24,825 bases of DNA from Actinomycetota bacterium (GCA_009702945.1 WLGZ01000001.1:1-24825), one strand, 5' to 3'; counted from the stretch's first letter, positions 2,297 to 19,567 are shown. Notes: generated from the sequence alone by a model not told the origin. Numbers and translations are program-made.

Positions 2297-3091
2297 TTAA
2301 TAGCTCGGGTCTGCGGCCAAGGCTCTAAGTGCATTAGCAATCGTTTCGATCTTGGCTTGCATTGTTGTTAAGCCAAGTTCGAATGTGACGGCTGTCGCTT
2401 CAGGAAATGATGAGTTAACCCAAATCGTAAATGTTCCGGTGTAGGAGTTAGTTGGTGAGCCTGATTTTTCTCCGGGAATACATTCGGATTTGAATCCCGT
2501 TAATTGTGAAAGTCGGTCACTAATTGTTGCTGGTCGCTCAGGCGGGCAATCTATCTGTGCATAGGGCTGATGAAAAACCACGATTCGTTTTGGTTTTATG
2601 GTTTCAACGGCGTTCATTAAAGCTAACGTTTCAGGTTCACTTGCTGGACTCGGTCCGCTATAGGTTCTTGCCATTGGATCTGAAGCAACCCACTTAACTG
2701 GAAAGTTTCGATTCAGGTCAACGCCATTTGCATTGCGGCGGGTGACCAGTTCGGCGCCATCCGGATTGGCATCCCGAAGCACCCAGATTTCCGTATCGCT
2801 GGCAACAGATTGAGTCATGAGTTCATCAACTACGCGTTTGCCATCTGGTTCATCACCGTGGACTGTACCCACAACTAGCAAGGCATTATTTGAGTCGATT
2901 GCCGAGCCAATCAGTCTGCAAGCTGTAATGTCTACGCCATTGACGGATTTGCCAACAGAGATAGTTTCTTGGCAACCACCAGGTTTTATACCTTCAGGTT
3001 CCTGCCAAATTTGAAATGCCCAAACCCCAGCTACTACAGCGATAGTTAGCAATGCGCCTTCGATCAAGAACAACCAAAATTTCATGCGCAC
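2297..3091 (-). CDS. M14 zinc carboxypeptidase/amidase, MpaA-like, with an N-terminal membrane anchor
   Basis: HGDE (HxxE), NPDG, NANGVDLNRNFP, SEPET, FH (third Zn ligand), FELG (catalytic Glu); hydrophobic residues ~5-26. Confidence 0.8.
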   Translation of the reverse strand: MRMKFWLFLIEGALLTIAVVAGVWAFQIWQEPEGIKPGGCQETISVGKSVNGVDITACRLIGSAIDSNNALLVVGTVHGDEPDGKRVVDELMTQSVASDTEIWVLRDANPDGAELVTRRNANGVDLNRNFPVKWVASDPMARTYSGPSPASEPETLALMNAVETIKPKRIVVFHQPYAQIDCPPERPATISDRLSQLTGFKSECIPGEKSGSPTNSYTGTFTIWVNSSFPEATAVTFELGLTTMQAKIETIANALRALAADPSY

Positions 3092-3114: not shown

Positions 3115-4452
3115 TCACCAGCCTGTGAAAGCCGCAATCATTTCATCAGTTACTAGGCCCGATTTAGCGTCTGCAATTGCTTGAGCAATGATCCGGATGC
3201 CTTGCTCGATTTCATTTACCCGCACCGTAAGCGGTGGCGTTACTTCCAATACATTTGCGCCAACGTAATAGACAACGACTCCAAGTTCCCAAGCGCGATA
3301 CACCGTTTTCCGAGCTAGATCATGGTTTCGATTATTAGTTTCACGATCGGTGACTAGGTCAATTCCGATGGCAAGGCCGTGTCCACGGACATCGCCAACT
3401 ACATCAGCAATATCAAATTCAGTTACAAGATCACTGAATAACTCTCGAAGTTTTTGCCCCGAATTTTTGGCAAGGCTTGCAAGGTCTTGCGAAATAATAA
3501 CCTCCAGCGCAGCAATTCCCGCAGCAACACAAATTGGGTTTCCAGCAGCAGTCATCAATGCCGAACCTGTTGGACCATCAAGAATTCTTGCTGGTCCAAC
3601 CGCTGCCGATAACGGCAAGCCGCCACCGAGCATCTTGCCAAAAGTCACAATGTCAGGCACGACGTCATCGAGAAGGAAAGCGTGCAGTAAGCCAGTTCGA
3701 CCAAGGCCCACTTTTACTTCATCGCAGATAAACAAAACGTCGTAAGTCTTACAAAGGGCTGCGACTCCTTTCATAAATCCAGGTGGTGGCACGATTAAGC
3801 CACCGTCAGATTGGATTGGCTCCATGATCAAGCAGGCAACATCGCCAGCCTCAAATTCGCTTTGGATTCGCTGCAATGAATCTGCAACAGAATCTGCGAT
3901 GCTTCCCAGATGTGGTCGGAAAGGATCAGGATAGGGAATAAATGTCGCACCATCTGCGGCAGTGGTATTTGTCCCAACGTGCACACCTGAAACCCCCATG
4001 GCAAATCCGACTCCACCGTGGTAACTGTTTTCAAAAGTGATTACACGAGACTTTCCGGTGTTGAACCTGCAGGATCTCAGCACAACATCGTTCGCATCAG
4101 AGCCAGTGTTTCCAATGTAAACCCGTCGATTTTCCTCACCAGGAACTATTGATAACAGAAGTTCTGCAAACTTCACCAAATCTGGGTGGATTGCTGAAAT
4201 GCCTCCAAAGCCTGGTGGATTTGTGGCGGCTTCAACTATGGCTTTGGTAACTGTCGGGTTCCCATAACCAAGTCCACCTGCCGTCCAGCTGCTGGAAAAG
4301 TCCAGAAGTTCGCGACCTCCCGGCTCGACCAAAACAGTGCCGTTACCAGACTCTGCAACCAGCGGGAAAAATCTTAACTTCTCAACTCCAGCAACACTGG
4401 CTGCGTCACGGGTAAGTAAGTCTTGAACCAACGGATGAATAGTTGAGGCCAT
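3115..4452 (-). CDS. Class III aminotransferase-fold PLP enzyme; alpha-amino-epsilon-caprolactam / amino-acid amide racemase homolog
   Basis: KLRFFPL, W56, SYHG (Y144), EPIQSDGGLIVPP (D216), CDEVKVGL (K247), FGKMLGGGLPLSA (PLP K273), YRAWELGVVVYYVG, C-terminal FTGW. These match the recalled Achromobacter obae ACL racemase. SD AGGGAG. Confidence 0.8.
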   Translation of the reverse strand: MASTIHPLVQDLLTRDAASVAGVEKLRFFPLVAESGNGTVLVEPGGRELLDFSSSWTAGGLGYGNPTVTKAIVEAATNPPGFGGISAIHPDLVKFAELLLSIVPGEENRRVYIGNTGSDANDVVLRSCRFNTGKSRVITFENSYHGGVGFAMGVSGVHVGTNTTAADGATFIPYPDPFRPHLGSIADSVADSLQRIQSEFEAGDVACLIMEPIQSDGGLIVPPPGFMKGVAALCKTYDVLFICDEVKVGLGRTGLLHAFLLDDVVPDIVTFGKMLGGGLPLSAAVGPARILDGPTGSALMTAAGNPICVAAGIAALEVIISQDLASLAKNSGQKLRELFSDLVTEFDIADVVGDVRGHGLAIGIDLVTDRETNNRNHDLARKTVYRAWELGVVVYYVGANVLEVTPPLTVRVNEIEQGIRIIAQAIADAKSGLVTDEMIAAFTGW

Positions 4453-4461
4453 AAGTACTCC

Positions 4462-5601
4462 CTAGTTAAGTTCGTAAGCGAGTTTGGCATTTGCATAACC
4501 GATGCTATCGGTTACGTGCTTTGCGTCGGCTAAACTCCAAAGTCCTTGGTCAACCCACTCTGCCAGAACTCTGCCGAAGCCATATCTAAACATTGCTGCA
4601 CCCATATACGTCAGCTCTGATAGACCCCAAGCATCTGAACTAAACAAAATTTTGTGAAAGGGTGCGAGTTCTAATGACTCAGCAATTATCGCTTCGCTGC
4701 GAGCACCGGTGTAGTTGATTGCTAATCCAACATCGAGATAGACATTTTCAAACATTTGGGCCAAGTAGCCTGCGTTGCGATGGAACGGGTATGTGTGCAA
4801 CAACATAACTGGAACTTTTCGCGACTCGGCATGCTTAATAAAATTTGTCATCAATAGCGGATCGCATAAATGTAGATACAAGTCTGGATCACCGTAACCA
4901 ATATGAAATTGGATCGGAAGATTAAGTTCTAGCCCAGCAAAAATAAGGTGCCTTAACAAGATTGGATCATCGATTCTGGCTGGTGCCCCAGAATCCACTT
5001 GTCGAAGCACTGGTTCGATTGCTTTCTGCACCTCTTGTTGACTTGGAGGACACGGTTCAAAATGTAATCCGTACCGATAAGCCACAATGCTTTTCAGGCC
5101 AACTGCACCTTTGGCGGCAATTGCAAGTTCACGCGCAAAATCACTTACAAAAGATTCGGAAGTTACCGTCCCGGAATCCAATAGTTTCTCGGCCGTGGTT
5201 TCGAGGCGAATGACTTTATCTACTTTGTGACCAGCTAACTTTGCCATTCCTTCTGGTCCATGAATTTCAGTGCCCCTAAAGCCAGTTTCGATTAACGAGT
5301 GGGTTACACCACACGCTGTTAGAAATCGACGATTGACTTCGGAGGCGCCGAGTTCAATGCGCCTAGCGAAATAACTTTGTGGATTGCAGTGAGCTGGCAA
5401 ATCAAGTAATGGAGCACACCATTTTCTGGTTGTAAAACCAACTTGACTATTCATGGCAATATCTAAAGTCTTTGGCTGCCGATCTGATTCAGTAATCATG
5501 TTTGAAAACTCATCTACGGTTGGGTTGTTTTCATAAACCCCATGTACGTGATGATCGACTAATCCAACGTGATTAACATAATCTTGAATTTCTGAACTCA
5601 T
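4462..5601 (-). CDS. Metal-dependent amidohydrolase, FluG/NodGS N-terminal-domain type (start refined to ATG 5601)
   Basis: DHHVHG, LKSIVAYRYGL, QFHIGYGDPDL, LLHTYPF, VYLDVG, KILFSSDA motifs. TAAGGT SD 5 nt before ATG 5601. Confidence 0.8.
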   Translation of the reverse strand: MSSEIQDYVNHVGLVDHHVHGVYENNPTVDEFSNMITESDRQPKTLDIAMNSQVGFTTRKWCAPLLDLPAHCNPQSYFARRIELGASEVNRRFLTACGVTHSLIETGFRGTEIHGPEGMAKLAGHKVDKVIRLETTAEKLLDSGTVTSESFVSDFARELAIAAKGAVGLKSIVAYRYGLHFEPCPPSQQEVQKAIEPVLRQVDSGAPARIDDPILLRHLIFAGLELNLPIQFHIGYGDPDLYLHLCDPLLMTNFIKHAESRKVPVMLLHTYPFHRNAGYLAQMFENVYLDVGLAINYTGARSEAIIAESLELAPFHKILFSSDAWGLSELTYMGAAMFRYGFGRVLAEWVDQGLWSLADAKHVTDSIGYANAKLAYELN

Positions 5602-5609
5602 CAAAGACC

Positions 5610-6902
5610 TTAATAAGCTTCGTTGTATCGAGCGCACTTTGCAGCACCATCAAGGCCAGCCAAAGTTTTTTCCTCGCTTGCTCGGATTCCCAAGTGGGTA
5701 TCAATTAGATCTTTTGCAAACCAGGTTTGCATAACACTGTTGGCGTTAAATGCTGCAATTGCCTCATTTAAGGTCGCAGGTAATTGTGGAACATCGACGT
5801 TATCCACGTGATCATCCACGATTTGATCAATTTTCAAATCTCGATCCAGGCCATCGGACATGGCATTGATGAGACAAGACATAACCAAATATGGGTTTGC
5901 AGTTGCGTCTGCAGCTCTATATTCAACATTGAAAATCTTGTTAGGGTCTGAGCCACTTGGAATTGGGCAAATACGAAGTAAGGCCTCACGATTTTGTCGC
6001 CCGATGCAAATTCCCCCAGCACTCCAGCGATGTGGAGTCAGGCGCAATGCAGAAATCTGACTTGGAGCAGTCCAAGCCAAAATTCCCTCAGCATGATCCA
6101 AAACTCCAGCAAAAGCCGACTCAGCGACACTCGATAGCCCAGCTTTTCCTTTCGGATCGTAAGTGAATGGCTTGCCATTTTTAGTCAAGGAGATATGAAC
6201 GTGCACCCCGTTACCGACTGCATCAGGGTGTGGAATTGGCACAAATGTTGCGTGCAGCTTATTCTCACGTGCCACATGTCTGATTAATTCTTTGAGAATT
6301 ACTGCGTGATCGCATGCAGTAAGGGCGCCTTGCGGTGTCATAGTTACTTCAAATTGACCTGCACCATATTCTGGAAGCCAGTTTTCCAATTCAATTCCCG
6401 CAGCAATGCAAGCATCCCAAACTTCACTACCGAATGGCTCCGATGCCAACATGGCATCGAGACCAAACGGTGATCCCGGGAGCGATGAGCCATCCTCTCG
6501 CTTTGTCACAAACTCATGTTCAAAAGATGCAACTACTTCTAATCCATGGTCGTTGCGAAGTCGTTCGATAGCAATCTTCAAGTTACTTCTTGGGCAGCAC
6601 TCCCAAGGCTTGCCGTCCATCGTGTACTGATCAGCTAAATAGATCTCTACGTCACGACCATATTCCTTACCCCGAAATACCGCTTTCGTTGTTAAATCCG
6701 GAATCAGTCTCAAGTCACCTAATGCGCCAAATGGGTTTGGATCAGCAAGGGCACCAAAGGCATTAAGTGCTAGATCTGCTGGGACCCATCCCACGCCTGA
6801 TGTTGGATTTAGTTCGGATTTAGGCAACGACCTGCCGCGCGTAATGGCAACTAAATCATTGACTGCAATGAATGCAAAAGGTTCGACGCTATCCGATTTC
6901 AT
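5610..6902 (-). CDS. Glutamine synthetase-like gamma-glutamyl-amine ligase (PA5508/PauA7-like), not a true GS
   Basis: GS catalytic motifs FEHEF, PEYGAGQFEV, NGVHVHISL, NREALLRI, EYRAADATANPY. Subfamily motifs ITRGRSLP, GWVPA, GDLRLIPD. The flap reads PHRWSA instead of PGYEAP. Confidence 0.85.
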   Translation of the reverse strand: MKSDSVEPFAFIAVNDLVAITRGRSLPKSELNPTSGVGWVPADLALNAFGALADPNPFGALGDLRLIPDLTTKAVFRGKEYGRDVEIYLADQYTMDGKPWECCPRSNLKIAIERLRNDHGLEVVASFEHEFVTKREDGSSLPGSPFGLDAMLASEPFGSEVWDACIAAGIELENWLPEYGAGQFEVTMTPQGALTACDHAVILKELIRHVARENKLHATFVPIPHPDAVGNGVHVHISLTKNGKPFTYDPKGKAGLSSVAESAFAGVLDHAEGILAWTAPSQISALRLTPHRWSAGGICIGRQNREALLRICPIPSGSDPNKIFNVEYRAADATANPYLVMSCLINAMSDGLDRDLKIDQIVDDHVDNVDVPQLPATLNEAIAAFNANSVMQTWFAKDLIDTHLGIRASEEKTLAGLDGAAKCARYNEAY

Positions 6903-7647
6903 GAGTTGTTACATCTCCTGTGTTTCTGTTTATTCTCAGTAGTGATCCGTTCTTAAGCTCATTAAAGTTGTTAGGGTTCGGCCTAACACCGGATGACCAG
7001 GCAGAAGTTACACCTTCAACTGATTGCCAAAACAGATCGTAATAATCTGGCTGCAATTCTGGACTCCGATTTTCAGGCTTATGTTGGCACACAATAACAA
7101 GTTCGGTTTCCGTCAGGATCATGGCGTTAATCGACGTGTAATGTATCGGCGCAAAATCCTTTACAAGTGCCTGATAAGCCGCGACTAAATCTCCGTCAGA
7201 TTTTCGCAACTGAGTTAGTAACGCAGCAAAGTACTGTTCGCTATCAGTATCGCCTTCTAGTTCGGCCAGGTAATCAGCATCGATTAATGCATTTAAGGAA
7301 TCACCTCTGGCAACTCCCCCATTGTGAATGAAAGCGATTTCTCCCATAGAGCTTTTCTTAACAAATGGATGGGTGTTTGGAATGCAAACCGCAAGTTCCT
7401 CGGTTGCCCACCGCAAATGTGCAATGGCATCAGTCGATTTCATTTGCGTAACAAGATCTGAATAAACCTTGGATTTATGAGCTGGGCTAGTGTCTCTCAC
7501 TAATTTGATTTCATCGGCTTCGCCATAGGCAATGCCCCAGCCATCGCGGTGGATCGTGCTTAGTTCTGTAAAGGCTGGAAGATCTGAACCAAGAGCCGCA
7601 TCAACACTCAATGGGTTGGTGCTATGCCAAGCAAACAATCGGCACAA
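6889..7647 (-). CDS. Class II (Ntn) glutamine amidotransferase-like protein, EgtC/YafJ-like; probable gamma-glutamyl hydrolase
   Basis: TTG start giving M-C-R-L-F (Cys2 nucleophile); HRDGWG, AHLRWAT, NTHPF, FIHNG, GDTDSE motifs. The 3' end overlaps the GS-like start by 14 bp. Confidence 0.82.
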   Translation of the reverse strand: MCRLFAWHSTNPLSVDAALGSDLPAFTELSTIHRDGWGIAYGEADEIKLVRDTSPAHKSKVYSDLVTQMKSTDAIAHLRWATEELAVCIPNTHPFVKKSSMGEIAFIHNGGVARGDSLNALIDADYLAELEGDTDSEQYFAALLTQLRKSDGDLVAAYQALVKDFAPIHYTSINAMILTETELVIVCQHKPENRSPELQPDYYDLFWQSVEGVTSAWSSGVRPNPNNFNELKNGSLLRINRNTGDVTTHEIG

Positions 7648-7649
7648 AG

Positions 7650-8537
7650 TTACACCTTTTCCTGAGTACGTTTCCCAAAAATACCATTGGGGAAAATTGA
7701 CAAGATGATAACCACGATCGTGTAAGTGATCGCATCACGATATGGCATTACATTCGGTGGCAACCAAGTCTGTAGCGCGATTTCAATTGCGCTCAATATG
7801 AATCCGCCTGCTACTGCTCCAGTTAGGCTTCCAAGTCCACCAATTACTGCCACAATAAATGCCGCTAACACTGGCTTGAATCCCATTAAGGGGTCAACTG
7901 AACCTCTTTGGATTACCCAAAGCACGCCAGCGACACCAGCTAGTAATCCAGACAACAAAAAGGCAAACGAAATCAATCTAGATGCCTTAACGCCCATTAA
8001 GCCAACAATTTCAAAGTCATCGGCCGCAGCTCTAATTGCCCAGCCCCAATAACTTCGGTCGAAAAAGAACTTAAGGGCTAACAGCGCAAGAACACCAACT
8101 GTGATCGACATGATTTGTACTTTTGAAATCTGAGAATTACCAATCGAAAGCGAAGTAGTTAACCAAGTTGGTACCGGGACTGCTTGACCTCTAGGTGAGA
8201 TTCCATTTTGAAACAAAACTTGGAGCAACATCGAAACTGCGAAGCTTGTCATAAGTAGAGTTGCGCCACTGGCATTCCGAACAGGTCTGAAAGCGGCAAA
8301 TTCCATCAAGGCCGCAGAAATGCCACCTGCAATTACAGCCACGAAAACCGCCAACCAGAACGGCTGTCCCGTCAAGATTCCAGCGAGAAGAACATAACCG
8401 GTTAGGGTCATTAATTCACCGTGTGCAAAGTTAATAAGTCCCAGCACACTGAATATGACTGCCAAACCAAGTGCTAATAGTGCATAAGTGCCACCTAGCG
8501 AGATGACATTTACAAGGTAGGAAATTAGAGCATCCAC
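7650..8537 (-). CDS. Branched-chain amino acid/amide-type ABC permease (LivH-like)
   Basis: YALLALGLAVIFSVLGLINFAHGE, GWAIRAAADD, MGV, VIGGLGS motifs; multiple TM segments; GTG start overlaps the upstream TAG. Confidence 0.9.
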   Translation of the reverse strand: MDALISYLVNVISLGGTYALLALGLAVIFSVLGLINFAHGELMTLTGYVLLAGILTGQPFWLAVFVAVIAGGISAALMEFAAFRPVRNASGATLLMTSFAVSMLLQVLFQNGISPRGQAVPVPTWLTTSLSIGNSQISKVQIMSITVGVLALLALKFFFDRSYWGWAIRAAADDFEIVGLMGVKASRLISFAFLLSGLLAGVAGVLWVIQRGSVDPLMGFKPVLAAFIVAVIGGLGSLTGAVAGGFILSAIEIALQTWLPPNVMPYRDAITYTIVVIILSIFPNGIFGKRTQEKV

Positions 8538-9247
8538 TACTCAGCACCTCCTAAGTAAACCTTTTTAACTTCGTCGGAAGTTCTTAAGTCTGCAGCTAGG
8601 CCTTCAAGTGCAATCTCTCCAGTAGACATTGCATATGCGCGATCGGCGAATTTAAGAACTCGCATTACTTCTTGTTCCACAATGACCATGGCAAGGCCAG
8701 TCTTGCGCAAGTCGGACAACAACTGATAAACCGCATCAACAATTGTCGGGGCTAAGCCAAGAGATGGCTCATCAATTAATAAAAGTTTTGGTCGAGACAT
8801 TAATGCTCGAGCGATTGCAACTTGCTGTTGTTCGCCACCGGACAAAGTTCCGGAAACTTGTTGGAGTCTTTCCCGAAGAATCGGAAGGCGATTTAATAAA
8901 TCATCGAATAAGTCATCGGACTTGGCTTTACGTGGTGCACCTAGCATCAGATTTTCGCGCACTGTTAGATGAGGAAAAAGTCGACGCCCTTCGGGCACTA
9001 ACGACAGTCCCAACGAAACAATTCGTTCAGTTGGCGCACCGGTGATATCTTGACCCGCAAAATTTACCGCGCCTTGGGATTTAATCAAACCCACAATTGC
9101 TCGTAAAGTTGAAGATTTGCCCGCACCATTAGGGCCAAGGAGGGCGACTACTTCGCCCTCCTTGACCTCAAGGTTGCTGCCGCGCACAGCCTTAACCGCT
9201 CCATATGAAATGGAAAGGTCTGTGGTTGTCAGCAGTGTGTTACTCAT
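8537..9247 (-). CDS. ABC ATPase (LivF-like)
   Basis: Walker A GPNGAGKS, VPEGRRLF, signature LSGGEQQ, Walker B LLLIDEPSLGLAP. Confidence 0.93.
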   Translation of the reverse strand: MSNTLLTTTDLSISYGAVKAVRGSNLEVKEGEVVALLGPNGAGKSSTLRAIVGLIKSQGAVNFAGQDITGAPTERIVSLGLSLVPEGRRLFPHLTVRENLMLGAPRKAKSDDLFDDLLNRLPILRERLQQVSGTLSGGEQQQVAIARALMSRPKLLLIDEPSLGLAPTIVDAVYQLLSDLRKTGLAMVIVEQEVMRVLKFADRAYAMSTGEIALEGLAADLRTSDEVKKVYLGGAE

Positions 9248-9249
9248 TT

Positions 9250-10482
9250 CTACAACTGAGCCTTTGGCACGGTTGCAGGATCTGGAGAGAACGTTCCAAC
9301 AAGTGAACGTTCGCTGTTCTTGATTTCAACCAAGGCAACTTCACGAATAGCCATGCGATCGCCACCCTTGTAGCTGATTGCTCCAGTTATGCCTTGAGCG
9401 CCTTCAAGATTTGACCATGCTTGCCAAATCGCATCTGCGTCACAGCTCTGTGCCTGCTTAACAACAGCGTCAAGGGTAAGTCCTAGTTCATAACCTGTTA
9501 CCGCATAGATGGTCTCAGGATCTTTACCGTACTTACCGTTGTAGTCAGTGAAGAAAGTGCTCATTGCGCCTTCATTCTTCAATACACCAGCAGTTGTGTA
9601 GGTAACACCTTCAGCAATATCTGCAAGCGCCAATGTTGTAGGTGAATCGATACCATCTGTTCCAAGAACAGCGGCAGTGATTCCTGCGCCACGTAGTGCC
9701 TTAATGAAGGTTGGGAAATCAGGCTCATACGCAGGAGTCATGATGACATCTGGCGCTGGACTTAGTGCCTTGATTTCATCAACAATCACGCTGAAGCTTG
9801 CTTGTCCCATTGAGAAGGTGCCTTCTCCGACAACTTTGCCACCGTTAGCTTCAAATGCTTCTTTGAAATAGCCTGGCAACAAGTTTGTGTAGGCACTATC
9901 AGGTGATCCAAGTGTGTATGCATTCTTGTAACCCATTTCGGTTGCATGGTCTGCAAGAACCTTGGCTTGTGTGTTGTCACCAAATGCATTTGAGAACATG
10001 TGGTCGCCAACTGCAAGCGGCAAAATTGGCGAGGAGCCAAACCAAGATACGGCAGCAATGCCAGCATCCTGAGCCAACTGACCGGCTGCGATTGATGGGT
10101 CAGCATCGCCAGGAGTGATCAGGATACTGATTTCCTCAGCTACCAATTCAGCTGCCACGGTTGCGGATTGTGCCGCATCCGAGCGAGTGTCCTTGACTAC
10201 TGTTTCAATCGTAAACTTTCCGTCTACTCCACCAGCGGCATTAACTTGCTCTGCCCATAGTTCAAATCCCTCAAGATTTGGTACGTCAATGTATGCAAGG
10301 CCACCAGTCTGGCTTCCCGCTACACCAACTTTTACCGTGCAGGCCGCACCAGCTGCAGGAGCAGTTGCTTCGCCGCTCGCTGTGGCTTCTCCGTCACCAC
10401 TAGCACAAGCAGACAAAAGCATGATTGCACTTAGGCTCACGGCCATCTTTGTGACCTTAGAAGGTCCAGACTTTCGTTGCAT
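9250..10482 (-). CDS. ABC substrate-binding lipoprotein, LivK/Leu-binding type I periplasmic-binding fold (start refined to ATG 10482)
   Basis: Lipobox LLSAC after a basic N-terminus; GSQTGGLA, DTRSDA, VLGTDG motifs. SD AAAGGT 8-9 nt before ATG 10482, which removes the overlap with the upstream gene. Confidence 0.88.
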   Translation of the reverse strand: MQRKSGPSKVTKMAVSLSAIMLLSACASGDGEATASGEATAPAAGAACTVKVGVAGSQTGGLAYIDVPNLEGFELWAEQVNAAGGVDGKFTIETVVKDTRSDAAQSATVAAELVAEEISILITPGDADPSIAAGQLAQDAGIAAVSWFGSSPILPLAVGDHMFSNAFGDNTQAKVLADHATEMGYKNAYTLGSPDSAYTNLLPGYFKEAFEANGGKVVGEGTFSMGQASFSVIVDEIKALSPAPDVIMTPAYEPDFPTFIKALRGAGITAAVLGTDGIDSPTTLALADIAEGVTYTTAGVLKNEGAMSTFFTDYNGKYGKDPETIYAVTGYELGLTLDAVVKQAQSCDADAIWQAWSNLEGAQGITGAISYKGGDRMAIREVALVEIKNSERSLVGTFSPDPATVPKAQL

Positions 10483-10489
10483 TAGTTCA

Positions 10490-12319
10490 CTACCTTTCGT
10501 TATTTGTTGTTGTTTTTTCATCAACTGATGATTCTTCTCCCCAGCCTAAATATGCAGCATGCACTTCGGGTAGAGATAAGATTGTTTCTGGATCTCCCTG
10601 GGCAATTACCCGGCCGTGATCCAAGACGGTTAGCGAATCGCAGGCTGATCTAATCAACGTCACATCGTGATCGATCAGTAGCATGCCAGCGTTTGCTTGC
10701 TTCATGATTTGGCGAAATTGAGCCAAGAGTTCAGCTGATTCTGCTGGATTCATTCCAGCAGCTGGTTCATCAAGAAGAAGAACGGAAGGCTTAAGCGCAA
10801 GAGCTCTAGCAATTTCTACGCGTCGCTGATCGCCGAATGAAAGTTCGCCGGCAAATCGATACGCGTGATGCATAACGCCAACTTGATTAAGTAGGGATAG
10901 TGCAGATTTATCAGAATCCTTAACTGATTCACCAGCAGAGATGCAAGCAACAACGACGTTGTCCAATACTGTCAACTCTTTAAACAGTCTGATGTTCTGG
11001 AAAGTGCGACCGAGACCAGACCTAGCGCGCTTCCAAGTTTTTTCCTTGCTGATCTTTAGGTCGCCAAGGTGAATTTCCGCAGAATCGGCCTTAGAAATGC
11101 CAGTGATGCAGTTGACCATAGTTGACTTGCCTGAGCCATTTGGTCCAATCAATCCGGAGATTTTGCCTCGCTCGACAAACATGCTGGCATCATCAAGGGC
11201 GACTAAACCTGAGAATCGCTTGGTGATGTTAGTTGCAGTTAAAACTGGCTTACCGGACGGGAGTTGTTCGGCAACTGGAATTGTTGCATCAAGATTCGGT
11301 GAGTCCCCACGATACGCAGAAATTTCCTCAGGTTCATGGAAGCCCATAATTCCCTTTGGCCTCAGATACAGAGTCAATAAAATAATGATTGCAAGGCCTG
11401 CATTGGTTAAACCAAACAAGCCAATGCTGTCGCCAATCTTTCGCAAGTTTTCTATAACGGCCATTACAAGAACAACCCCAACGACTGCGCCGGCTACCGA
11501 ACCTGAGCCACCCACAATCAGCATTGTTAAAAGTGTCAAAGTTAATGTGAAGTAGAAATCTTTCGGCGAAAATGCACCAAGAAGACCGGCATAACATGCA
11601 CCCATTCCACCCGCGACAGCTGCCGAAAGCACCCAGGCTTTGAATTGACTTCGTTGGATGCGCACACCAGCGCTCGAAGCTGCAATAACGTCATCACGTG
11701 AAGCCCTGACATGGATTCCAGTTTTTGAATCTCTAAACCATCGAGCAATAATCAATGCGATTATTGCAACTGTTGCCGCAACCGGAACGCTGGTAAAGCG
11801 CTTAACGCCATAAAACGTCTGACTACCTCTGGTGAAATCTTCAGCACCAACAAGCGTGCTGTGAATAATGATTAGAATTCCAACCGTAGCAATCGATGCA
11901 GAATCCCGAAGTCTGGCAATTACTAAACCTGATAGCGCTCCCACAAGCGTTGCTGCTAGCACTCCGCACAACATGGCAATTGGAAAGATAAATGTTGTAT
12001 CTTGCAAGAACACTGGGAGCGTTGAAAGCGATGTCTGCTTAACAATTGGAGTCATGGACAAGATGCCAGTTGTATAAGCCGAAACGCCAACAAAACCGAC
12101 GTGACCGAAACTTAGAATGCCACTATTGCCACTAAATATTTGAAGCGCTAACACGCCAATTAAAAGCGTCAAAGCATTTGCCAAAAGTAGTTGAGGTGCC
12201 TTCGACATGCCGTTTCCGAAGAGGCCCACCAAGGCAATCAAAAGTGACCAAAAAACCATGGACGTATAGCGTCTGGACAATCGGGATTTAGTCAGGGCTT
12301 CAGGAATAAGTTTCAACAC
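10490..12319 (-). CDS. Fused ABC permease (LivM-like) and ATPase (LivG-like)
   Basis: N-terminal TM domain with GILSFGHVGFVG and IVGGSGS; C-terminal GPNGSGKS, RTFQNIRLF, LSFGDQRR, LLLDEPAAG, LIDHD. Confidence 0.92.
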   Translation of the reverse strand: MLKLIPEALTKSRLSRRYTSMVFWSLLIALVGLFGNGMSKAPQLLLANALTLLIGVLALQIFSGNSGILSFGHVGFVGVSAYTTGILSMTPIVKQTSLSTLPVFLQDTTFIFPIAMLCGVLAATLVGALSGLVIARLRDSASIATVGILIIIHSTLVGAEDFTRGSQTFYGVKRFTSVPVAATVAIIALIIARWFRDSKTGIHVRASRDDVIAASSAGVRIQRSQFKAWVLSAAVAGGMGACYAGLLGAFSPKDFYFTLTLTLLTMLIVGGSGSVAGAVVGVVLVMAVIENLRKIGDSIGLFGLTNAGLAIIILLTLYLRPKGIMGFHEPEEISAYRGDSPNLDATIPVAEQLPSGKPVLTATNITKRFSGLVALDDASMFVERGKISGLIGPNGSGKSTMVNCITGISKADSAEIHLGDLKISKEKTWKRARSGLGRTFQNIRLFKELTVLDNVVVACISAGESVKDSDKSALSLLNQVGVMHHAYRFAGELSFGDQRRVEIARALALKPSVLLLDEPAAGMNPAESAELLAQFRQIMKQANAGMLLIDHDVTLIRSACDSLTVLDHGRVIAQGDPETILSLPEVHAAYLGWGEESSVDEKTTTNNER

Positions 12320-12418: not shown

Positions 12419-13231
12419 CTATTCCTCGGTCTTTATGTAAGGGGTGCCGTTATCCCATAATTGGCAAGTTAACTTCAGGTTTGCAGTCAGATTTCGGATT
12501 ATCCCTTCATGTGATGGGTTTATCACAATAAAGACCCCTCCTGAGAATTCACTATCATCGCGCCTTAAAGAATCGGCAATTCGATCAAGTGGCTGGAAAT
12601 GCATGCCTTCCCAGCCGATGCTTCGGTAGGTGTCGGCACAAATTGCAAGCTTGTTTTTGCCACCCTGGGCCCAGCCCATGATTCCGATGTAGTGGCCTAC
12701 ATTCCAATCGGCTGGTGGCTCTTGAACCTTATGTCCAGATAGGAATCCAAAAGCCGTTGCCGGTTCGGATTTACCACCCCACAAGAAGCGTGTGGCACTA
12801 TTTGCAATCAATAATGCAGGTTGATTTAGGTCAACTAATGCTTCGAGGAGGTTTTCTATAATTTCTGCAGTCCACTCGCCTCGCAACGGTATTGCAACAA
12901 GTTTTGAATCAGCTAGTTCATTAGTTGCAACCAAAAGACCTTCAGGTGAAGTACCAGTTATGTTGCTGTCATCAATACGCGGCAATTCAAGAATGTAGTC
13001 AGACCGACCAGCATCATTTGGAGGTAGTGATTCATTAGTTTGAATCTTGCTTAGGATTGAGCCCGCAGCGAGGCCAACGTGATCTTGTTCAACTTTTACT
13101 GAGGCCAGCGCACGAAGCGCAAGAGTGATCCAAAATGCACCGCACAACTCATTTTTTTGCGGCATTTCACTTGCATGTTCAGCAAGTAAAAGTTCAGATC
13201 CGGGCAACATTTGGATTGTGTATTGACTCAT
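12419..13231 (-). CDS. Hypothetical protein with papain-like (phytochelatin synthase / C39-like) Cys-His-Asp motifs
   Basis: PQKNELCG (Q25, C30), VGHY (H180), CADTY (D200); no signal peptide. The fold is inferred from motif order only. Confidence 0.6.
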   Translation of the reverse strand: MSQYTIQMLPGSELLLAEHASEMPQKNELCGAFWITLALRALASVKVEQDHVGLAAGSILSKIQTNESLPPNDAGRSDYILELPRIDDSNITGTSPEGLLVATNELADSKLVAIPLRGEWTAEIIENLLEALVDLNQPALLIANSATRFLWGGKSEPATAFGFLSGHKVQEPPADWNVGHYIGIMGWAQGGKNKLAICADTYRSIGWEGMHFQPLDRIADSLRRDDSEFSGGVFIVINPSHEGIIRNLTANLKLTCQLWDNGTPYIKTEE

Positions 13232-18520: not shown

Positions 18521-19567
18521 ATGAGAAATACAAAGTCTTTACGAGTGCTGTCCAAAGTCCTAATAGTTCTGGGCACTTTTGCCCTAACTCTCGGAGCTTT
18601 TGCTGGAATCGTAAACAATAATCTGCTCAATGGTCCGAAGTTAGCTGACCATATTGAGAGCATTCGCCAGGACCCGGCCGTAATCGCCAAAATGAGTGTC
18701 CAGTTGACTGATGTGTTAATCGAGAAGGCGCCAAATGCCGCCCCGTTTCGCCCGGTCATCGAGAATGCTGCTGCCAAGATTCTTTCTAGCGATGCCCTCT
18801 CCGAACCAATTCGTGGCGCTGCCGTTCAATTGCGTGATGCATTTGTAAAGGGTCAAGCGCTAAAACTTGAATTTACTGAGACAGCAAACGTTGCAATTGA
18901 AAAAGTAAACATGTTTGCGCCGCAACTTGGGATCGAACCGATTGCTGCGTTAAGTCTTGAGCCACCAGCTGGCAGCATTTTGGCAACTATTAATACGCTG
19001 CAAAAGGTATTGAAGATTTCTGACACGTTATCTATGGCCTTGCCGATTGCAGCCGCAGTTATGTTCATTGCAGTTATCTTGCTTGCACCATATCGTCGTC
19101 AAGGTGCGCAGCGAGTTGCTAAGTCAGTAATGATTTCAGGTGGCATCCTTGCCGGAATCAGTGGTGCGATTTGGATTGCAACGAACATCTTCGGTCGCGA
19201 TCCTGATATCGGAATCTACCTAATTGCTTCATGGAATCAATTTGATGCTGCTTTCTGGATCCCAGCTGCGATCTTGATCGTGGCGGGTGGCATGGCTTAC
19301 ACCTTGCTAGGCGGAGTTTTACCTGACGTTGATGTACCAAGCGAAGTTGCGAAAACTTGGAAAAAGATTTGGGCACGACCAGCAAATGTTTGGATTTCAT
19401 TTGCTCGGGCCATCATTTTCGTAGCGCTAGGTGCGTTCATAGTAATGAATACTCAAGTTGCGTTGCGTGGCTTGCTGTTCATAGCTTCGGCATTAATGAT
19501 TGCAACTGCAATTTTCGAATTCAATCGACTACTAGTTAGGTCGATTGAAAAAGAAAAGGCTAGTTAA
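18521..19567 (+). CDS. Hypothetical polytopic membrane protein (one N-terminal TM, ~135-aa soluble domain, ~5 C-terminal TMs)
   Basis: 348-aa ORF fills the gap between hom and lysA with a clear hydrophobicity pattern; no catalytic motif recognised. Confidence 0.75.
   Translation: MRNTKSLRVLSKVLIVLGTFALTLGAFAGIVNNNLLNGPKLADHIESIRQDPAVIAKMSVQLTDVLIEKAPNAAPFRPVIENAAAKILSSDALSEPIRGAAVQLRDAFVKGQALKLEFTETANVAIEKVNMFAPQLGIEPIAALSLEPPAGSILATINTLQKVLKISDTLSMALPIAAAVMFIAVILLAPYRRQGAQRVAKSVMISGGILAGISGAIWIATNIFGRDPDIGIYLIASWNQFDAAFWIPAAILIVAGGMAYTLLGGVLPDVDVPSEVAKTWKKIWARPANVWISFARAIIFVALGAFIVMNTQVALRGLLFIASALMIATAIFEFNRLLVRSIEKEKAS

Follow-up and report, generated by a model that had tools for sequence, protein, structure and literature searches.

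A predicted alpha-amino-lactam or amino-acid-amide racemase encoded beside a ligase, hydrolases and an importer in a freshwater actinobacterium

The gene and its neighbours in the window

The stretch of DNA analysed here, called the window at its full length of 24,825 nucleotides (nt), comes from an Actinomycetota bacterium (GCA_009702945.1 WLGZ01000001.1:1-24825). At positions 3115-4452 of its minus strand it carries a gene (P0001) for a pyridoxal 5'-phosphate (PLP) enzyme of 445 residues, which homology, trees and fold predict to be an alpha-amino-lactam / amino-acid-amide racemase of the alpha-amino-epsilon-caprolactam (ACL) racemase (ACLR) family. Sequence, tree, fold and gene neighbours support placing it, as a class III PLP enzyme of fold type I, in the family of ACL racemases and amino acid amide racemases and not among the transaminases, and we estimate a probability of about three in four that the protein racemises amino-amides or lactams. 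The original prediction had already read this apparent 4-aminobutyrate (GABA) aminotransferase as such a racemase; PDB scores, trees and fold support that reading computationally, and the loss of two arginines, a separate GabT in the genome and an ACLR-like neighbourhood add to it.

The open reading frame (ORF) proposed earlier at these positions was borne out as an intact frame; no strand had been given, and the gene lies on the minus strand. An AGGGAG Shine-Dalgarno sequence is found 6 nt 5' of the ATG, which itself lies 9 nt past the stop codon of the preceding gene. Scans for promoters and terminators returned signals at or below shuffle expectation.

The racemase gene is part of a series of ten genes of one orientation, reaching from 13231 to 2297, that follows a minus-strand row of actinobacterial type (argS-lysA-hom-thrC-thrB-rho); all cluster features given here are on the minus strand. 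At the head stands a DUF6885 protein (12419-13231; 226 bits), followed by a Liv-type (HAAT) ATP-binding cassette (ABC) importer of four genes (7650-12319) consisting of a fused permease/ATPase (10490-12319), a binding protein (9250-10524), an ATPase (8537-9247) and a permease (7650-8537). The binding protein showed generic HAAT-family matches only, which gave no clue to the ligand. Next come a class II (N-terminal nucleophile (Ntn), Cys2) amidotransferase-like hydrolase, EgtC-like, whose sequence starts MCRLFAW (6889-7647), and a PA5508-type glutamine synthetase-like (GS-like) gamma-glutamyl ligase (5610-6902), which scores 288 bits to 4hpp (PA5508) vs ~124 bits to true glutamine synthetases. 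The gene directly before the racemase (4462-5637) encodes a metal-dependent TIM-barrel amidohydrolase of the 2QPX / FluG N-terminal type (143 bits to 2qpx). Taken together, the adjacent ligase and amidohydrolase (4462-6902) look like a split FluG/NodGS; in bacteria, PA5508 and LSEI_0440 (2qpx) reportedly stand in for the two halves of the fungal protein FluG (PMC6478659).

The run ends 23 nt 3' of the racemase with an M14 zinc peptidase-like, MpaA-like protein (2297-3091) that has an N-terminal membrane anchor and an HGDE zinc motif. It scores 73 bits to the MpaA model, below the cut-off of 157, and its gene is kept at this place in close relatives only.

As for the host, the G+C content of the window is 47%, a near-identical contig is known from a Lake Pavin Actinomycetota metagenome-assembled genome (MAG), and relatives at 80-92% identity carry the label Candidatus Nanopelagicales. 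Searches of the host genome refer to a MAG of 1.06 Mb that is 66% complete. Within the lineage the racemase gene is patchy, found in 5 of the 15 other congeneric genomes and in 10 of the 150 sampled across the order.

Homology, fold and phylogenetic placement

Pfam assigns the protein to Aminotran_3 only, and its homologues are called 4-aminobutyrate or aspartate aminotransferase by JGI and NCBI, the automatic label that had been anticipated. These labels would suit an ordinary class III transaminase acting on GABA, ornithine or an omega-amine and serving amine catabolism as PuuE does in the Puu pathway. That pathway ends with a class III transaminase, and the gene does stand beside a PuuA-like GS-like ligase. 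The scores, however, point away from such an enzyme. The protein falls below the cut-off of every NCBIfam model, the best transaminase model giving 333 bits against 608, and the GabT models give 195-236 bits against cut-offs of 507-713 (TIGR00700, 215 against 507; PRK06058, 236 against 639). Moreover, the genome has a true GabT at another place (G000:C92:2339-3529, minus strand), with 746 bits against the NCBIfam cut-off of 639 and 569 against 507 for TIGR00700. Since the genome encodes this bona fide GabT on contig C92, the gene in the window is not the organism's GabT. Considering also the fully supported separation from GabT in the tree and the absence of four GabT residues (Arg141, Arg398, Glu211 and Gln242), both described below, a transaminase appears extremely unlikely.

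The same genome contains two more class III enzymes, one omega-aminotransferase-like (contig C82) and one ArgD/putrescine aminotransferase-like (contig C63).

The best full-length sequence matches in the PDB are the ACLRs of Achromobacter obae (385 bits) and Rhizobium freirei (381-385 bits) and, at 342 bits, the amino acid amide racemase of Ochrobactrum anthropi, and the top seven distinct PDB sequences are all ACL racemases or the latter enzyme. Isoleucine 2-epimerase (233 bits) and related racemases (220-233 bits as a set) come lower and GabT lower still (~186 bits). The fold agrees. An AlphaFold2 model for which 19 family members were used, with a predicted local distance difference test (pLDDT) value of 89.9 and a predicted template modelling (TM) score of 0.91, has 6gio, 3dxv and 2zuk as its top Foldseek matches (TM 0.92-0.95; root-mean-square deviation (rmsd) 1.7-1.8 A), while free-amino-acid racemases and GabTs rank after the ACLR and amide racemase structures in the list.

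Set against individual enzymes, the closest resemblance is to ACL racemase (EC 5.1.1.15) of A. obae (2ZUK/3DXV/3DXW) and R. freirei (5M46/5M49; 5M4B, 5M4D), which is homologous over the full length (385 bits, 42-44% identity), matches in fold at TM 0.92-0.95 and has the same Trp/Tyr/Asp/Asp/Lys/Lys/C-terminal-Trp set. Those prototypes are proteobacterial, whereas the protein described here belongs to a sister subgroup and its host is a streamlined actinobacterium of fresh water with 47% GC. The top Foldseek match (TM 0.92/0.95, rmsd 1.8) is the amino acid amide racemase of O. anthropi (6GIO), at 42% identity and 342 bits.

Three trees were calculated, two quick ones of 100 and 111 rows and a careful one of 52 rows with ultrafast bootstrap / SH-like approximate likelihood-ratio test (SH-aLRT) supports, to which the following values refer; the R. 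freirei enzyme is a row in none of them. The ACLR family including the protein forms a 100/100 clade apart from isoleucine-2-epimerase-like and GabT-like sequences, so that the alignment and tree comparison proposed earlier places it in the ACLR clade, away from both groups. The quick trees likewise put it with the ACLR family and apart from true transaminases. Inside the family, a 98/87 clade divides into two sister groups. One, which is proteobacterial (100/96), includes the ACLR gene of A. obae type that Brucella anthropi pOANT01 carries. The other (100/97) is mostly actinobacterial and holds the protein together with sequences from Mycolicibacterium, Nocardioides, Microbacterium, Streptomyces and Acidimicrobiia, with a branch of Klebsiella/Pantoea-plasmid and Rhizobiales sequences nested inside it.

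The characterised enzymes were related to this division through their genes and scores. The product of the pOANT01 ACLR gene gives 823 bits to 2zuk, and the R. freirei PRF 81 gene product is the crystallised 5m46 protein (962 bits). Among the loci retrieved the gene for the O. anthropi amide racemase was not found, so its side of the split is read from bit scores only: 6GIO gives 487-497 bits with proteins of the prototype group vs 342-356 with those of the mostly actinobacterial group, which places it across the split from the protein of the window.

To our knowledge, all characterised members of the ACLR family are proteobacterial, namely those of A. obae, O. anthropi, R. freirei and Citreicella sp. 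SE45, as the original prediction had stated. Actinobacterial homologues at 50-62% identity, however, are abundant in the databases, not rare, just uncharacterised, and almost all are labelled aminotransferase. One plasmid record (OW969657.1) already labels a homologue '2-aminohexano-6-lactam racemase'. The protein is an uncharacterised addition to an established family.

Active-site and pocket residues

Residues were mapped through a HMMER alignment to PDB 2zuk, in which chain numbering equals the native numbering plus 3 and which covers residues 10-445 of the protein, and were then surveyed in an alignment of 96 ACLR-clade, 13 isoleucine-2-epimerase-like and 14 GabT-like sequences. All motifs named beforehand are present, namely EPIQSDGG (211-218), DEVKVG (244-249), SSSWTAGG (Trp56), NSYHGG (Tyr144) and the C-terminal ...FTGW (Trp445), and every residue that had been equated with one of A. 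obae ACLR aligns with its counterpart.

Asp216 (codon 3805-3807, minus strand, as are all codons given) corresponds to ACLR Asp210 and Lys247 (3712-3714) to Lys241; both are invariant in the ACLR clade (96/96), and E. coli GabT has Glu211 and Gln242 there, the Glu and Gln that had been expected of GABA aminotransferases. The PLP Schiff-base lysine, Lys273 (3634-3636), equals ACLR Lys267 and GabT Lys268 and is likewise kept in 96/96. Trp56 (4285-4287) is ACLR Trp49 and GabT Ile50, with Trp in 90 of the 96 ACLR-clade sequences, while Tyr144 (4021-4023) aligns with Tyr137 and the C-terminal Trp445 (3118-3120), invariant in alignment A1, with Trp436. Asp244 aligns with ACLR Asp238, which in ACLR protonates the pyridine nitrogen, Tyr137 packing on the PLP ring (PMC6424897). 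Mutant ACLR structures D210A (5m4b) and K241A (5m4d) in the PDB mark these positions as residues studied for catalysis, which fits the catalytic set given in the original prediction.

At the sites of Trp56, Asp216 and Lys247, every one of the 14 GabT-like sequences carries Ile, Glu and Gln. The isoleucine-2-epimerase-like sequences have Ala at the first (13/13), Asp at the second, and Gln (12/13) or Asn (1/13) at the third, so that the Lys247 site separates the ACLR clade from both other groups. As judged from the aligned sequences, the ACLR pattern in the protein is confirmed as group-specific and not due to chance.

The two carboxylate sites differ further. In E. coli GabT, Arg141 binds the omega-carboxylate and Arg398 the alpha-carboxylate of substrates. 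The protein has Gly147 (4012-4014) at the site of Arg141, as do 90 of the 96 ACLR-clade sequences, and Glu403 (3244-3246) at that of Arg398, Glu being found there in 93 of 96. Arginine is retained at the Arg141 site in 12 of 14 GabT-like sequences, and at the Arg398 site in 14/14 GabT-like and 13/13 isoleucine-2-epimerase-like ones. With Gly147 and Glu403 in the place of these two arginines, the protein should have little affinity for 2-oxoglutarate or a free amino acid. This is what would be expected of an enzyme whose substrates carry no free carboxylate, and it speaks against a 2-oxoglutarate-dependent transaminase as well as a free-amino-acid racemase. With GabT (E. coli 1SF2 and the copy on C92) the protein shares the Pfam family, the PLP lysine and the Asp to the pyridine nitrogen, whereas GabT differs in Ile50, Arg141, Glu211, Gln242 and Arg398 and lacks the C-terminal Trp.

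GabT identity as such was rejected, all five of these residues being different, the scores below cut-offs and the clade separate.

The nearest relatives after the ACLR family are the isoleucine 2-epimerase of Lactobacillus buchneri and its kin (5WYA, 4YSN, 5LL2, 9WRF, 9WQZ), which resemble the protein in class III fold (TM ~0.9), in its predicted racemase chemistry, in Asp at the 216 site and in the C-terminal Trp. A fold-type I racemase or epimerase of free amino acids, of the Lactobacillus isoleucine 2-epimerase, Pyrococcus broad-specificity racemase or Ala/Ser racemase type, would account for these shared features. Nevertheless, such enzymes act on free amino acids and keep the carboxylate arginine throughout, where the protein has Glu403; they carry Ala and Gln/Asn in place of Trp56 and Lys247; well-supported branches lie in between; and the score is ~150 bits lower than that to ACLR. 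We therefore regard this reading as very unlikely. When tried as an identity, a free-amino-acid racemase was rejected on residues, tree and score cut-offs, the NCBIfam LeuMetRace model giving 263 bits against 800.

Cluster conservation and the proposed role

The prototype ACLR cluster, as found at pOANT01 and in R. freirei, is composed of a Liv-type importer with fused permease/ATPase, an RpiR regulator, an isochorismatase-like hydrolase, a GS-like ligase, an FGase-like hydrolase and ACLR. The window shares with these loci the PA5508-like ligase and the Liv-type importer with its fused permease/ATPase, whereas no RpiR regulator is adjacent to its racemase. Ligase and importer together are 40-56% identical to those at the R. 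freirei and B. anthropi pOANT01 ACLR loci; the importer has the same architecture as that beside the prototype ACLR (42-56% identity), and the ligase matches its counterpart there over the full length (41%). The M14 protein and the FGase-like protein were compared as possible counterparts, and this comparison showed no similarity.

The association reaches well beyond these loci. Of the ACLR-family loci, 66 extend for at least 5 kb to either side of the gene, and in 50 of these a PA5508-like GS is encoded no more than 10 kb away, with a median gap of 1.6 kb and on the same strand in 40 of the 50; this is so in none of 11 loci of other class III genes. When the search was seeded with the ligase, an ACLR-like gene was present in 32 of 61 loci. 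The racemase is a frequent add-on to a ligase-hydrolase-transporter core.

From family membership, residues, fold and synteny we infer the reaction, the class of substrate and the order of steps as follows. The Liv-type ABC importer would bring in a chiral amino-amide or lactam, and the racemase would bind an alpha-amino compound in which an amide or lactam bond, or possibly an ester, masks the carboxyl group. The external aldimine would then be formed on Lys273, and L and D forms would be interconverted by removal of the alpha-proton and its re-addition on opposite faces, Lys273 presumably acting from one side and Asp216 from the other, in a pocket shaped by Lys247, Trp56, Tyr144 and the C-terminal Trp445. 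One enantiomer may be passed to an enantiospecific ligase or hydrolase: the PA5508-like ligase, the 2QPX-like amidohydrolase and the Cys2 Ntn hydrolase would process the compound, with the adjacent hydrolases stripping glutamyl or amide groups. The racemase would thus serve as a stereochemical funnel that makes both enantiomers usable within an accessory nutrient-scavenging cluster. Known ACLRs accept ACL, many amino-acid amides and esters (PMC7431475) and also, reportedly, homocysteine thiolactone (PMC11391342). ACL is probably only a surrogate and not the natural substrate.

Extending this role to the ACLR family as a whole is possible but tentative. In that case the enzymes would funnel enantiomers within a widespread catabolic cluster centred on a gamma-glutamyl ligase of PA5508/FluG type, together with an amide hydrolase and an importer of amino-acid type. 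The target would be a natural chiral amino-amide or lactam, for which the lactams of ornithine or lysine, amino-acid amides and the D-isoglutamine released by cell-wall turnover are candidates. If this is true, the Nanopelagicales cluster, with its added membrane-anchored MpaA-like M14 peptidase, would represent a streamlined scavenging route in lake water.

Several points weigh against racemisation of amino-amides or lactams by the protein. (i) Judging from the trees and bit scores, both structurally characterised kinds of enzyme fall across the family split from the protein, which is not bracketed by characterised enzymes. (ii) Its identity to these enzymes is only 42-44%, and no assayed member of its mostly actinobacterial subgroup was found. 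(iii) The roles of Asp210 and Lys267 as two bases, and that of Lys241, are taken from what Okazaki et al. in 2009 and Frese et al. in 2017 reportedly described and from the titles of PDB entries. (iv) Hydrolase partners differ, 2QPX-like and Cys2 Ntn in the window vs isochorismatase-like and FGase-like in the prototype cluster, and because of this difference the substrates may differ as well. (v) In an 84%-identical relative (L003:4494-12162), which occupies the same rho...DUF4389 site and has the importer, Ntn hydrolase, racemase and M14 peptidase, the ligase, amidohydrolase and DUF6885 genes are missing, so that the racemase there has no GS-like partner. The racemase is thus not strictly dependent on those three genes, and the ligase/amidohydrolase pair behaves as an indel at this site.

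Some of these points are also those that favour an ACLR-family protein working on a pathway-specific intermediate, either by epimerising a gamma-glutamylated or peptide-bound amino-amide or by another PLP reaction at C-alpha, such as one of retro-aldol type or an elimination. The tight linkage to the PA5508-like ligase (50/66 loci), the lack of a characterised member in the subgroup and the variation of hydrolase partners among lineages would all agree with such a function. Nonetheless, the full set of ACLR catalytic and pocket residues is kept, the model superposes on ACLR and amide racemase with an rmsd of ~1.8 A, and ACLRs are promiscuous on small amides, lactams and esters (PMC7431475), so that we hold this alternative to be unlikely and prefer racemisation of a simple amino-amide or lactam.

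The assignment matters beyond this locus, as thousands of database homologues, many of them from Actinomycetota, are labelled GABA or aspartate aminotransferase, which misleads the metabolic reconstruction of abundant freshwater bacteria. A simple residue rule would tell ACLR-family proteins from aminotransferases: Asp216 together with Lys247, and Glu instead of Arg at the site of GabT Arg398. For biocatalysis, the sister group, mostly of actinobacterial sequences, offers a diversity that has yet to be exploited. The cross-phylum linkage of ACLR with PA5508/FluG-type ligases, which includes the loci of the crystallised enzymes, offers a testable handle on the natural role of both families.

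The surroundings of these genes gave some further observations. Loci L106-L116, from Nanopelagicales and other freshwater actinobacterial MAGs, encode an APC permease together with a GS-like ligase (48-51% identity) and a 2QPX-like amidohydrolase (57-62%) but have no racemase in the vicinity; they are the ligase-hydrolase core without racemase. Homologues of the DUF6885 protein (36-41% identity) occur in Solirubrobacteraceae and Rubrobacter at no more than 10 kb from PA5508-like ligases (the L141, L149, L157, L178, L065 set), and one is found near an ACLR-like gene in a Rubrobacteraceae MAG, so DUF6885 may belong to the same functional set as the ligase cluster.

Klebsiella pneumoniae pSJ25_1 (L020) and 44 other Klebsiella plasmid records carry an ACLR-like gene whose product is 52% identical to the protein described here. 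The gene occurs on IncF-type plasmids of Klebsiella, Pluralibacter and Pantoea, flanked by insertion sequences (IS) and accompanied by a GS-like ligase, an FGase-like hydrolase, a cysteine hydrolase, RpiR and an APC permease.

In the window itself, two plus-strand genes converge on the cluster, one for a class V PLP enzyme resembling kynureninase (391-1674) and one for a DUF4389 protein (1697-2293), and the same pair flanks the cluster in L003. Finally, a 348-residue ORF with no Pfam match (18521-19567, plus strand) is located in the interval from hom to lysA and runs counter to the neighbouring biosynthetic genes.

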